A stretch of DNA of 64,000 nt, taken from an uncultured Planctomycetaceae bacterium (GTDB lineage: Bacteria; Planctomycetota; Planctomycetia; Gemmatales; Gemmataceae). A program made the position numbers and the translations under genes. Location: the NCBI GenBank assembly GCA_963763045.1, contig CAVXNL010000019.1:29788-93787 (forward strand). Direction: 5' to 3'. Shown piece after piece: positions 1 through 64,000 of the stretch; position 1 is the first letter of the stretch, and the number at the start of each line of letters is the position of its first letter. The notes beneath the pieces are model-generated. The model was not told where the DNA came from. It ran no database searches and saw nothing but the letters and a program-made list of their open reading frames with translations.

Positions 1-2
1 TG

Positions 3-128
3 GGGTGGTATCTCGCCCTGGCGGGAACGCGGAGCCATCTGTATCGGTCGATGAACGATCTCACGGCGCTGTTGATGGAAGAGTTACGTAAAATGGAAAA
101 GACCAAGACAATCACTGACGCCAAGTGA
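3..128 (+). CDS. 3' end of an unidentified upstream gene (partial)
   Basis: Frame 3 is open from the window edge to TGA at 126-128 (...LTALLMEELRKMEKTKTITDAK*). No recognisable domain. Confidence 0.25.
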   Translation, partial: GWYLALAGTRSHLYRSMNDLTALLMEELRKMEKTKTITDAK

Positions 129-140
129 AGAGGTGCTTCG

Positions 141-392
141 ATGTCGCGCGATGATATCAATAACTTTCTTCGTGAACGCCCATTTCGTCCTTTCCGGTTG
201 CTCTTGAGCAACGACAAGACTTACGAGATCCGTCACCCCGAACTGGCATTCGCCACACTATCGAGTGTCGTCCTGGGCATTCCAGCGACGAATTCCCCCC
301 AACCGGTAGCGGATTATGCCGTCCACGTCTCGTTGATGCACGTCGTACAAATAGAGCACATCGCTGCAACCCCCACCGCTTCGGCCGGTTAA
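141..392 (+). CDS. hypothetical small protein (83 aa)
   Basis: ATG-initiated ORF in the gap before sucD. No recognisable motif. Confidence 0.25.
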   Translation: MSRDDINNFLRERPFRPFRLLLSNDKTYEIRHPELAFATLSSVVLGIPATNSPQPVADYAVHVSLMHVVQIEHIAATPTASAG

Positions 393-418
393 CTGGACTC
401 CTCAAGGAACGATCCGCA

Positions 419-1295
419 ATGAGTATTCTCGTCGATAAGAACACGCCGCGTTATCTGCCAGGGCCTGGGCAAGGCCGGCACCTTTCACGCCACGCAGTGC
501 CGCGATTACGGCACGCAGGTTGTCGGTGCGGTCAAGCCGGGCAAAGGCGGCACCACGCAGGACGGCTTCAAGCTGTTCGACACGGTCGCCGAAGCCGTTC
601 GCGAGACCAAGGCCAACGCCACCATGATCTTCGTGCCGCCGCCCGCAGCGGCCGACGCCATCCTGGAGGCCGCCGACGCCGGCATCGCCGTCATCGTCGC
701 CATCACCGAGGGCATTCCCGTCCTCGACATGGCCCGCGTGATGCAGGCGCTCAAGGGCAAGTCGTGTCAGCTCATCGGCCCCAACTGTCCCGGCGTCATC
801 ACGCCCGGCCAGTGCAAGATCGGCATCATGCCCGGCTACATTCACAAGGCCGGCTCGATCGGCGTCATCAGCCGCAGCGGCACGCTCACCTACGAGGCCG
901 TGTGGCAGCTGTCGAACCTCGGTCTCGGCCAATCGACGTGCGTCGGCATCGGCGGCGACCCGATCATCGGCACGAACCAGATCGAGCTGCTGAAGCTGTT
1001 CCAGGACGATCCGCAGACGGAGGGCATCCTGATGATCGGCGAGATCGGCGGTACAGCGGAGGAGCGGGCGGCGGAGTTCGTGAAGAAGCACGTGACGAAG
1101 CCGGTGGCGGCGTTCATCGCCGGTCAGACGGCCCCGCCCGGCAAGCGCATGGGCCACGCCGGCGCCATCATCAGCGGCGGCAGCGGCACCGCGGCGGAGA
1201 AGATCAAGGCGCTGCGCGACGCCGGGATTGCGGTGGCCGACAGCCCGGCGGATTTGGGGGTAACGATGCAGCGGGCGCTGAAGGAGAAGAAGTGA
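419..1295 (+). CDS. sucD: succinyl-CoA ligase (ADP-forming) alpha subunit, frameshifted near nt 446-450
   Basis: Begins MSILVDKNT. After one extra base the next frame reads [35 protein letters not shown]...MIFVPP. The ORF 624-1295 carries the rest ([58 protein letters not shown]). Together this is a classic SucD sequence. Confidence 0.85.
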
Positions 1296-1401
1296 CCCTG
1301 TGGGGCTTTGCCACGAAATTGAAGTCGCCGACCGAGGAATAAGGACTTACGGCGAATCTCCGACCGAGGAATAAGGACTTACGGCGACGCAGCTGCAATT
1401 C

Positions 1402-61206: not shown

Positions 61207-62349
61207 ATGATGCAGGCGAACGTCGATTCCCGTCTCGCGGACATTCGCTCCAGGGTCGAAGCCGAGGAACGCCTCTCATTCGAGGACGGCGTCTTCCTCT
61301 ACGACCACGCCGACCTGTTCACGCTCGGCGATCTGGCCAATCTCGTTCGTGAACGGAAGAACGGCAACTTCGCCTATTACAACGTGAATACCCACCTGAA
61401 CCCGACCAACGTCTGCGTCTATCGTTGTACCTTCTGCGCTTTTCGGGCCGACCTGAAGAGCGAGAAGGGCTACGTGATGACCGACGAGCAGATCCTCGAA
61501 CGCGCCGCCGAAGCCGATCGTCGCGGCGCGACCGAGCTGCACATCGTCGGCGGACTGCACCATCAGTTGCCGTATGAGTGGTATTTGAACGTCATCCGCA
61601 TCATCCACGTGGCTCATCCGCGACTGCATCTGAAGGCGTACACGGCGGTCGAATGGGACTGGTTCGCCCGGCTGACGGGCCGGCCGACGCGCGCTCTGCT
61701 CGCCGAGTTCCAGGACGCCGGCCTCGGCAGCCTGCCCGGCGGCGGTGCCGAGATCTTCCAGCCCGAGGTGCGCGATAAGATCTGCGAGCACAAGGCCGAC
61801 GCCGCCGAGTGGATTCGCATTCACCGTGAGGCGCACCAGCTCGGCCTGCGCTCCAATGCCACGATGCTCTACGGCCACATCGAGGAGCCGCGGCATCGCA
61901 TCGACCATCTGATTCGGCTGCGCGAACTCCAGGATGAGACGGGCGGCTTCCAGACGTTCATTCCGCTGGCGTTCCATCCGGACAACACGGGACTGGCGCA
62001 CCTCCCCAAGGCGAGCGGCCTGCTCGATCTGAAGACGATGGCGATCAGCCGATTGATGCTCGACAACTTCCCGCACATCAAGGCGTACTGGGTCATGCTC
62101 GGCATCAAGACAGCCCAGCTGGCCCTGAGCTTCGGCGCCGATGATCTCGACGGCACCGTGGTCCACGAAAAGATTTATCACGACGCCGGCAGCGATTCGC
62201 CGCAGGAATTGAGCGTCGCCGATATCCGCCGCATTCTCGAAGAAGCCGGCCGCGTGCCGGTGGAGCGCGATACGCTCTACAACGAGGTCATCCGCGATCA
62301 GGGCGAGAAACGGTGGCAGACGGGGCGACGATTGCAATTGGTGAAGTGA
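61207..62349 (+). CDS. radical SAM menaquinone (futalosine pathway) enzyme, MqnC/MqnE family
   Basis: NVNTHLNPTNVCVYRCTFCAF (CxxxCxxC) with a CofH/MqnC-like body (HIVGGLHHQLPYEWYL, TMLYGHIEEP, GADDLDGTV). Intact 380 aa. Confidence 0.8.
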   Translation: MMQANVDSRLADIRSRVEAEERLSFEDGVFLYDHADLFTLGDLANLVRERKNGNFAYYNVNTHLNPTNVCVYRCTFCAFRADLKSEKGYVMTDEQILERAAEADRRGATELHIVGGLHHQLPYEWYLNVIRIIHVAHPRLHLKAYTAVEWDWFARLTGRPTRALLAEFQDAGLGSLPGGGAEIFQPEVRDKICEHKADAAEWIRIHREAHQLGLRSNATMLYGHIEEPRHRIDHLIRLRELQDETGGFQTFIPLAFHPDNTGLAHLPKASGLLDLKTMAISRLMLDNFPHIKAYWVMLGIKTAQLALSFGADDLDGTVVHEKIYHDAGSDSPQELSVADIRRILEEAGRVPVERDTLYNEVIRDQGEKRWQTGRRLQLVK

Positions 62350-62364
62350 GACGCGGGAGGTCAA

Positions 62365-62778
62365 ATGCCCAAACTCGATATTCCGCCGATAATCCGCAAC
62401 ATGCTCGCCTGCGAGGACATCCAAACCGATCCGCAGGATGCGCGGAAAGTGTCGCTGGTGAACCTGATCCATTCGATAAAGTCCGTCGAGGAACCTCCGT
62501 ATCCGTTACGGTACCGGGAACTCTGCGTCTTTGTTCAGTTGACGGAATGTCGTGGGAAGGGCCGCGTCGGTTTGACTATTTCGCACGCTGATAGCGGGGC
62601 GTCCGCCTACGATGGTCCCGCACACCCCTGGCAAGCGAACCTCCCGAACGCTCCGCTCCAGCTTGTCGGGCTTCCTTTTCGGCTCACGAACATCGAGTTT
62701 CCGGAGCCGGGATTGTACCTGATCGAATTCTGGTATAATGACAAGGTCTTGGGGGAACAACCACTTTTGCTCAGGTGA
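62365..62778 (+). CDS. hypothetical protein (137 aa)
   Basis: ATG ORF with a plausible RBS (GGAGG at 62355) directly after the mqn gene. No recognised domain. Confidence 0.4.
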   Translation: MPKLDIPPIIRNMLACEDIQTDPQDARKVSLVNLIHSIKSVEEPPYPLRYRELCVFVQLTECRGKGRVGLTISHADSGASAYDGPAHPWQANLPNAPLQLVGLPFRLTNIEFPEPGLYLIEFWYNDKVLGEQPLLLR

Positions 62779-62781
62779 TGC

Positions 62782-63112
62782 AATGGTCGGTAAATCGAAC
62801 GCCATGGTGGAATGTTACCTTCTGCCGGAAATCGTGGACGATGCTGGTGGCACCAACGGGCGTGACACCGAGAACAAGGCTGGGGACGCCCTCGCCGAGT
62901 ACGTGCGGTGCGTCGCCGTCAGGTTTGCTCCCCGGTTCTTACAGGATGAGATTGTCGCAAAGATCCTCGCTTCCACGTCTGCGGAGATGGAGAACCGGGT
63001 GCGCCAGCAAATCAAGCTCATCATGCAGGAATACCGCCGCAAACCGGAACGGCCAGCGACGTCGCCCGCTCCCGACAAACCTGCTGAGGGCGGTGCGTCG
63101 CCGACCTCTTGA
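62782..63112 (+). CDS. hypothetical protein (~109 aa)
   Basis: MVGKSNAMVECYLLPEIVDDAGG... has an ordinary amino-acid composition rather than the Arg-heavy bias of wrong-frame high-GC ORFs, and is translationally coupled to the previous ORF. Confidence 0.3.
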
Positions 63113-64000
63113 GCGCTAGGCAAGTGCCGCTCACGCCGTCACCTTGTCCCCGCTCTGGCACCGCGACGTCAACGAACCCTTTATCCCGCAATCCCGTCGC
63201 CAGCGCCGCCGCCCGCTCCGGCTCACCATGCACCAACCGCACCTGCCGCGCCCTGCCGGCGAGTGGTCCGAGACTGTGCAACAATTCCGCGTGGTCGGCG
63301 TGGCTCGACAGGCCGTTGAGTACCACCACGTCGGCCTTAAGCGCTAACGTCCGCCCCAGGATGCGCACCTCGGGCAGGCGCTCCACCAACCGATGCCCGA
63401 GCGTGTTGGGAGCCTGATAGCCGACGATCAGGATCGTGTTCCGCGCGTCCTCGATCGTGTGCTTGAGATGGTGCTGGATCCGTCCCGCCTCGCACATGCC
63501 GCTGGCGGAGATGATGACACACGGCCCCGACTTGTCGTTCAGGGCGATGCTCTCGTGGACCTTTTCGACGTAGCGGATCCAGCGTTCGCCGAACAAATCG
63601 GGTTCCTGCTGCAAGAGCTGAAGCGTGGGTGCCCCGTAGCATTCGGTGTGGGACCGAAACACCTCGGTGGCCCGCACCGCCATCGGGCTGTCCACGTAGA
63701 CAGGGATTTGCGGCAGCCGGCCGGCGCTCATGAGCTGATGGAGGAAGTAAACGACCGTTTGCGTCCGGCCGACGCTGAACGCCGGGATCAGCAGTCTGCC
63801 GCCGCGTTCGGCCGTTTGGCGCACCACCTCGCCCAGGCGCTCGGCCGTTTCCTCGACGGGTTCATGCGTGTGGCCGCCATAGGTGCTCTCGCTGATGAGA
63901 AGATCCGCCGGCGGCACCGGGGCGGGTTCGCGCAAGATCGGCAGTCCCGGCCGGCCCAGGTCGCCGGTGAACGTCAGACGCCGCTCGCCGTCCGGCCCCT
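63021..64000 (-). CDS. MBL-fold / beta-CASP family metallo-hydrolase (RNase J/CPSF-like), 5' end beyond the window; the true 3' end is probably earlier than 63021
   Basis: LISESTYGGHTHEP (motif A-like), SGMCEAGRIQHHLK, LSSHADHAELL (beta-CASP motifs). The ORF tail overlaps two plus-strand ORFs, which suggests an unrecognised frameshift or stop. Confidence 0.7.
   Translation of the reverse strand, partial: GPDGERRLTFTGDLGRPGLPILREPAPVPPADLLISESTYGGHTHEPVEETAERLGEVVRQTAERGGRLLIPAFSVGRTQTVVYFLHQLMSAGRLPQIPVYVDSPMAVRATEVFRSHTECYGAPTLQLLQQEPDLFGERWIRYVEKVHESIALNDKSGPCVIISASGMCEAGRIQHHLKHTIEDARNTILIVGYQAPNTLGHRLVERLPEVRILGRTLALKADVVVLNGLSSHADHAELLHSLGPLAGRARQVRLVHGEPERAAALATGLRDKGFVDVAVPERGQGDGVSGTCLALKRSATHRPQQVCRERATSLAVPVCGGIPA

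Follow-up and report, generated by a model that had tools for sequence, protein, structure and literature searches.

A patchwork of single-base frameshifts in a 64-kb Gemmataceae contig is very probably residual assembly error and not gene decay

Insertions and deletions (indels) that fragment genes are a recognised failure of long-read assemblies, as described in two reports (PMC12007338, PMC6487183). Here, we analyse a 64-kb stretch of planctomycete DNA from a metagenome (contig CAVXNL010000019.1; 63% G+C), hereafter the window, in which sucD, ctp, nuoEF, hflC and many other otherwise conserved genes are interrupted by single-base frameshifts. The shifts are very probably patchy residual indel errors in the consensus of the deposited metagenome assembly and not signs of gene decay. 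The assembly was most likely a long-read or hybrid assembly that had been partly polished, and the assembler or polisher would have added or dropped a single base at roughly 60-70 positions across the 64 kb. The organism itself almost certainly encodes intact sucD, ctp, nuoEF, hflK/C and other genes. The gene content is that of a Gemmataceae-type planctomycete, with many Ser/Thr kinases, giant PQQ/TPR and WD40-like proteins, DUF1559, DUF4058 and multihaem cytochromes, and the closest named relatives of the window proteins are from metagenome-assembled genomes (MAGs) designated 'Gemmataceae bacterium'. Scans of the window for tRNA and Rfam families found no RNA gene.

The coding frame was followed on both strands with a codon-usage model trained on long open reading frames (ORFs) with a high G+C content at third codon positions. 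This tracker recorded about 70 same-strand frame switches that lacked the nearby combination of a stop in the frame left and a start in the frame entered. Its segments were joined into frame-corrected pseudo-proteins, which were used in database and family-model searches, and the shifts were placed by aligning single-ORF homologues to the DNA with frameshifts allowed, using a custom dynamic-programming script. Alignment of this kind, proposed as a check in the original prediction, anchored 57 net +1 or -1 shifts in 11 genes comprising 23.3 kb of coding DNA, and the positions obtained with different references agreed to within a few bases. Family models, which the corrected proteins match in one stretch, added DUF4058, DUF5615, SucD and a Wzc-like kinase. 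In total, 15 genes were verified by homology and about six others were recognised on codon usage only (the kinase/TPR, TPR-like, kinase-PilZ, Rpn-like and HEAT genes and the C-terminal half of a patatin-like gene), such that roughly 21 of the approximately 40 genes of the window are affected. The earlier estimate of at least 20 shifted genes was therefore about right, and every gene named in it proved to be shifted, HflK having the weakest support. The switches at 28009-28156, in an ORF for an FHA kinase, were a false positive of the tracker and were not counted; that ORF is intact and is the same in the public record. Two sets of alignments were discarded as non-homologous, those of the dihydrolipoyl-dehydrogenase genes of the related contigs L001 and L003 with the insertion-sequence region and those of the neighbouring genes of the Gemmataceae MAG L012 with a glycosyltransferase gene.

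The shift in sucD can be read directly. Beginning with the ATG at 419, nine codons (MSILVDKNT) are read in frame +1 (ATG AGT ATT CTC GTC GAT AAG AAC ACG); after one extra base, the remainder, starting at 447 with RVICQG..., continues in frame +2. The corrected SucD matches NF004230 at 1-290/291 in one stretch, whereas the public gene call starts at an internal ATG at 624 and yields a truncated product of 223 amino acids (aa; 624-1295). Alignment of ctp, which encodes a caspase-PDZ-S41 C-terminal processing protease, with three references (P0150, P0151, P0153) resulted in 72-83% identity without a stop, and the shift positions agreed among all three. In the 120 matches listed, the ctp relatives are one ORF of 854-894 aa, with identities up to 78%, and Pfam PDZ_2 crosses the junction near 10345. 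The giant PQQ beta-propeller/TPR protein is 66-68% identical to P0270 and P0271, with no in-frame stops in the frameshift-aware alignment; most of its 120 listed relatives are one protein of about 1,490-1,740 aa covering 97-100% of the query, with a few exceptions that have a shorter sequence or a coverage of only about 77%. For nuoEF, which encodes a NuoE-NuoF fusion, in 117 of the 120 relatives listed a single protein of 562-589 aa spans 97-99% of the query (identity up to 73%), and the other three, of 544-556 aa, span 94-96%. The Pfam families Complex1_51K (4-149/150) and NADH_4Fe-4S (3-84/85) each cross nuoF junctions in one stretch.

The other genes behave similarly. The DNA encoding the P-type ATPase and HflK aligns with residues 1-1095 of a 1,101-aa single ORF of L012 at 61% identity and without stops; TIGR01525 crosses the junction near 30650, and in the public record the gene is called as a fragment of 853 aa (30720-33281). 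The corrected HflC matches TIGR01932 at 1-315/318 in one stretch (160 bits, cutoff 134) and is 62% identical to a 321-aa ORF of L012; Band_7 crosses the hflC junction. With the DUF4058 profile, the corrected protein scored 274 bits (1-253/254 in one stretch) and the raw ORF 183 bits (46-253/254). The gain for DUF5615 was modest, from 49.6 bits (1-75/110) with the raw ORF to 53.0 bits (1-107/110) after correction. In the Wzc-like kinase, AAA_31 and TIGR01007 (5-152/204) cross the junction at 24980 in one stretch; the switch at 25516 is based on codon usage only. The corrected WD40-like protein is matched end to end and in one stretch by P0390, P0391 and P0392 (1,077-1,102 aa), and its public gene calls are two pieces, P0143 of 624 aa and P0403 of 257 aa, the latter 100% identical to 44505-43735. 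In three syntenic loci, single ORFs encode both cytochromes, the 327-aa protein and a protein called Fer/cNMP after its ferredoxin-type and cyclic-nucleotide-binding (cNMP) domains. The shifts placed in the cytochrome c554-like gene (cyt554) with a 502-aa orthologue from L001 agree with the codon-usage junctions at 47348, 47134 and 47003, and codon usage places the junction of the multihaem cytochrome at 49760. Alignments with the L001 and L003 orthologues place the shifts of the Fer/cNMP gene, for which the public call is a 489-aa fragment (53443-54912).

Genuine mutations, accumulated in young pseudogenes of a degenerating genome, would also leave split genes; the indels are present in the deposited sequence, and one gene of the window is really disrupted, by an insertion sequence (IS). 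However, not a single in-frame stop remains in the 23.3 kb after frame correction, despite 57 indels. In bacterial mutation spectra substitutions usually outnumber indels several-fold, and during neutral decay they would create stops. Nor is identity lost around the shifts: within 10 codons of a shift and elsewhere it is 81.9 vs 83.5% in ctp and 70.8 vs 67.5% in the PQQ giant. In nuoEF it is lower near the shifts (67 vs 79%), where misalignment at the junctions inflates the mismatches. The ratio of nonsynonymous to synonymous substitution rates (dN/dS) between the window and a sister contig is 0.25 for nuoEF with its 13 shifts, 0.18 for the Fer gene with two and 0.21 for the 327-aa gene with one. 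It is low regardless of the shift load and therefore gives no sign of relaxed selection. The expectation that the ORFs on either side of the shifts stay conserved was thus borne out. Moreover, the hardest-struck genes are central ones (sucD, nuoEF, hflK/C and ctp), a patch of 17 indels adjoins an untouched gene, and the shifts that the sister contig carries in the same genes are not those of the window. Instead of the mixed lesion spectrum and relaxed selection of a degenerating genome, only indels were found, and pseudogene formation is a very improbable account of the window.

The conservation of the proteins on both sides of every shift means that a full-length product would make sense, as expected also of programmed recoding by ribosomal frameshifting, transcriptional slippage or RNA editing. 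Against this, a slippery heptamer (XXXYYYZ within 10 nucleotides, nt) was seen at none of 47 sites examined, and neither a common nor a position-specific motif was found at these sites; a conserved heptamer or homopolymer at the site, the hallmark of recoding, is lacking. The shifts are in both directions (31 net +1, 26 net -1), their positions are not conserved in the sister-contig orthologues and recur in none of over 100 relatives per gene, and up to 17 events per mRNA would be required. An apparent excess of insertions among the first 48 events (28:20) was dropped when the addition of the WD40-like, ATPase-HflK and HflC genes changed the count to 31:26. Recoding has practically no chance of being the explanation, and we give just as little credence to indels that are truly in the DNA of the population and concentrated in kilobase patches of essential genes, either combined with motif-independent recoding or editing that still yields full-length proteins or, in the patches, as the result of very recent localised indel-prone mutation.

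The products of both intact and truncated window ORFs are in the public protein collection, all of them attributed to one 116,997-nt NCBI/ENA contig. The truncated ones include the 223-aa SucD, the 489-aa Fer protein, the 853-aa ATPase and the 257-aa and 624-aa WD40-like pieces. Since these products are already public, the indels belong to the deposited sequence and are no later addition to the window. This bears on the suggestion in the original prediction that the pattern is typical of an unpolished long-read assembly or of indels introduced deliberately, of which the first part, a noisy-assembly artefact, held and the second did not. A simulator used to plant errors as a test would yield context-free, random-looking single-base indels such as those seen here, but it would not clump them; the truncated products agree letter for letter with the public record, and the collection contains no intact nuoEF, ctp or PQQ version above 83% identity. 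Purposeful introduction of the indels is accordingly extremely improbable.

A sister contig (L004; ENA ERZ26871208, contig_213643_np1212) is syntenic with the window at 69-87% nucleotide identity and has 20 shifts of its own in four genes at 3300-9900, at positions other than those in the window: four in nuoEF, six in the cyt554 gene, one in the 327-aa gene and nine in the multihaem gene. The Fer gene of this contig is unbroken. The nuoEF shifts of L004 are at residues 75, 171, 257 and 439, none of them in the same codon as any of the window's 13. With this identity and its own errors, L004 was ruled out as a cleaner assembly of the same strain, although its length (116,764 nt) is close to that of the 116,997-nt contig. 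Scaffold names ending in _np1212 occur in Nanopore assemblies that were polished with NextPolish (PMC11628659). In L003, another contig of the same assembly, all of these genes are intact. Frameshift noise is therefore contig-specific within that data set, and other MAGs derived from it may be affected. Single ORFs in the relatives, indels as the sole lesion and positions not shared with the sister orthologues are the features of an artefact, and all three were found.

The shifts are not evenly spread. With an index of dispersion of 2.19, they depart from uniformity (P about 3.5e-4), and there are 6.7 shifts/kb in ctp, 7.0/kb in nuoEF and none in the sigma factor gene adjacent to ctp. The 17 ctp shifts are within 1.6 kb and none is in the last 870 nt of the gene (9472-10341); the 12-13 shifts of nuoEF within 1.4 kb compare with two in the next 2.4 kb. 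Long stretches, among them those at 12.3-16.7, 30.7-33.2 and 34.6-43.5 kb, have almost no shifts. The sigma factor aligns end to end with a 430-aa orthologue from L005 (76% identity, no events), and its exact product is in the public collection; the synteny of L005 with the window is limited to the sigma gene, ctp and one 126-aa gene. The IS at 57735-59392, a multicopy element, is likewise free of indels, with 99.5-99.9% identity over 1,649-1,656 nt and no gaps relative to four contigs from other metagenomes, in a comparison that concerns one locus only. The shifts, described at the outset as pervasive, are thus widespread with respect to the number of genes but patchy along the DNA. The dense patches at 10.3-12.0 kb and 50.9-52.3 kb would be spots where depth or short-read polishing failed.

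Several observations weigh against an origin in assembly error. The mean length of the longest homopolymer run near a shift (within 8 nt) is 2.47, the corresponding value for random coding positions being 2.48 +/- 0.11, and the inserted bases are mostly single and non-repeated, such that the textbook signature of Nanopore, 454 or Ion sequencing is absent. A further point is the strong clumping, for which failing depth or polishing is a conjectured cause. That the source contig itself comes from a long-read-type assembly is something we infer through an indirect tie, and a 50-mer scan of the GTDB representative genomes gave no match. Finally, the searched collections contained no short-read assembly of the same species, the best protein identities being 73-83%. 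With respect to the homopolymers, 11% of the sites are near a run of four or more, compared with 7 +/- 4% at random coding positions; the count of homopolymer-associated indels, proposed earlier as a check, was therefore negative, the sites being no closer to homopolymers than random coding positions. The lack of a homopolymer bias means that this is not the classic Nanopore deletion signature, but the negative result argues against one platform signature and not against an artefact in general. Context-free, clumped indels would result alike from low-depth noise in the consensus, from the filling of gaps with raw long reads and from strain collapse, and the sequencing platform cannot be told from the sequence.

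Strain collapse, in which the reads of co-existing strains are merged and both alleles of a polymorphic site are written or one is dropped, would likewise be an artefact, but of another cause than low-depth noise. The source is metagenomic, and the shifts are context-free and in kilobase-scale clumps, as microdiverse regions would give. At many insertion sites either of two adjacent different bases can be removed with equal restoration of the frame, and in another system apparent frameshifts have been traced to collapsed alleles (PMC8445201). Ties between adjacent bases are, however, expected anyway at wobble positions and do not discriminate, and the roughly 45% of events that are net deletions are not explained by the keeping of both alleles. 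We consider strain collapse a minor possibility that is rather unlikely to account for the shifts, and residual consensus error in the assembly the preferred explanation.

Table 1. Frameshifted genes of the window, two unshifted controls and the relatives of the ATPase-HflK gene. Net shifts are those anchored by homologues; positions are approximate where marked 'near' or '~'.
Feature	Position	Strand	Net shifts	Location of shifts and remarks
sucD	419..1295	+	1	One extra base near 446 (ACG-C-CGC); direct reading
DUF5615 toxin-like gene	1812..2167	+		One net -1 shift near 2076
Giant PQQ beta-propeller/TPR protein	2208..6773	-	11	Near 6724, 5922, 5122, 4575, 3984, 3935, 3727, 3420, 3103, 2963, 2943; ~1,520 aa once corrected
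ctp (caspase-PDZ-S41 C-terminal processing protease)	9472..12023	-	17	Dense patch 10342-11986
Extracytoplasmic function (ECF)-type sigma factor (control)	12301..13587	-		Intact, no shift; adjoins dense ctp patch
Ser/Thr kinase then TPR segment	16686..18123	+		Possible +1 shift near 17665; codon usage only
Large TPR-like protein	18498..21309	+		Probable +1 shift near 20905; codon usage only
Kinase-like/acidic linker/PilZ protein	21394..24483	-		~4-6 switches, near 23527/23478, 23132, 22843, 22160, 21690, some uncertain owing to the low-complexity linker; codon usage only
Wzc-like tyrosine autokinase	24685..26585	-		Shift near 24980; second possible near 25516
Rpn/PD-(D/E)XK-like protein	28767..29533	-		Possible -1 shift near 28994; codon usage only
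P-type heavy-metal ATPase-HflK	30257..33571	+	3	Net -1 shifts near 30477, 30665, 33185-33205
ATPase-HflK relatives	L012 2683-5988; L011 2572-5868			Same arrangement as frame-corrected window
hflC	33586..34549	+	2	Net -1 shifts near 34063-34076 and 34297
DUF4058 gene	37445..38277	-		Two net +1 shifts near 38183, 38133, within first 50 codons
WD40-like protein, ~1,090 aa	41392..44677	-	4	Near 44505, ~43800, ~43600, 41715
HEAT-repeat protein	44966..45714	-		Possible -1 shift near 45559; codon usage only; HEAT_2 on both sides
Cytochrome c554-like protein	46194..47484	-	3	Near 47349, 47147, 47007
Conserved 327-aa protein	47992..48952	+	1	Near 48046-48052; L001 and L003 alignments agree
Multihaem cytochrome	49074..50500	+	1	Net -1 shift near 49741-49747; L001 and L003 orthologues
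nuoEF (NuoE-NuoF fusion)	50719..52456	+	12-13	Dense patch 50933-52294: 50933, 50964-76, 51064-89, 51322-25, 51500-03, 51552, 51574, 51800, 51834-37, 52054-63, 52154-57, 52285-94; four references agree
Fer2/Fer4/cNMP-binding protein, ~790 aa	52537..54900	+	2	Compensating pair: 53087 deletion, 53346 insertion
C-terminal half of IS-split patatin-like gene	55940..57734	-		Possible +1 shift near 57244; codon usage and frame reading
IS4/Tn5-like insertion sequence (control)	57735..59392	+		No indel

Among the genes recognised on codon usage (Table 1), the kinase/TPR gene matches Pkinase at 34-302 and TPR_12 after the junction; it could consist of two overlapping genes instead of one shifted gene. 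A metagenome scan for relatives of the 931-aa TPR-like protein found no true relative, and profile searches found no family match for the Rpn-like protein. The kinase-PilZ protein has Pkinase at one end and PilZ at the other. Directly downstream of sucD, at 1447-2167, a DUF433 gene (1447-1722) and the DUF5615 gene form a pair, a putative antitoxin and a PIN-like toxin.

The ATPase and HflK are one protein of about 1,100 aa, encoded directly upstream of hflC, in two Gemmataceae MAGs. Because relatives carry one 1,101-aa ORF, this fusion, the one apparent fusion that was tested, is judged to be genuine and natural and not made by the indels. The earlier warning that both pseudogenes and fusions would be unsafe calls in this DNA was thus justified for the pseudogenes, given that indels are the sole lesion, but not for this fusion.

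The genes at 46194-50500 and 50719-54900, for cyt554, the 327-aa protein, the multihaem cytochrome, NuoEF and the 790-aa protein, form a cluster that is conserved in four related loci. The 790-aa protein has 2Fe-2S and 4Fe-4S domains together with three cyclic-nucleotide-binding domains. The cluster resembles a dedicated module for electron transfer in which one subunit senses cNMP.

The IS carries a 462-aa transposase with a Tnp_DNA_bind domain and has 30-nt terminal inverted repeats; at both ends it is flanked by a 9-10 nt direct repeat, GGTACTACC(C), the target duplication. It lies inside a minus-strand gene for a patatin-like phospholipase (55940-61086). The N-terminal half (61086 to 59393) contains the GGGxR and GxSxG motifs, the C-terminal half (57734 to 55940) the DGG motif. 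Unlike the frameshifts, this looks like a real insertional disruption. Several other public contigs, up to 1.2 Mb long, contain an identical copy of the transposase.

The frameshifts are not a biological feature of the organism; they are ordinary and are not to be annotated as pseudogenes. If they were taken at face value, roughly half of the approximately 40 genes here would be wrongly annotated, whether as pseudogenes, as gene fragments or as short hypothetical proteins, and public protein collections already include such fragments as singleton clusters. Estimates of completeness, pangenome counts and searches for 'novel small proteins' based on this MAG, or on its sister contigs from an assembly of the same type, would be distorted. 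A homopolymer filter would miss these errors whereas frameshift-aware protein alignment catches them. The value of the analysis is therefore practical, as a quality flag.

In comparison with known systems, the window shares with programmed frameshifting and slippage (prfB, dnaX, the IS3 transposases, the poly(A) tracts of endosymbionts) the continuation of a conserved protein in another frame, but it lacks slippery sequences, homopolymers and positional conservation, and its shifts occur in both directions with up to 17 events per gene. With pseudogene-rich genomes, such as those of Mycobacterium leprae and of recent host-restricted symbionts, it has in common many frameshifted ORFs and one IS-split gene; it differs from them in that nonsense mutations, deletions and relaxed selection are missing, core metabolic genes are affected, and genes with multiple shifts stand beside untouched neighbours. 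The indel errors of long-read and hybrid assemblies usually have a homopolymer association and an excess of deletions, the hallmarks of Nanopore sequencing, neither of which is seen here, and in the window the errors are not even but occur in kilobase patches, at up to about 1%. What the window shares with such assemblies are single-base indels that split conserved ORFs and are the sole lesion, the fragments that gene callers then put out, and a related contig with NextPolish-style naming that behaves alike.

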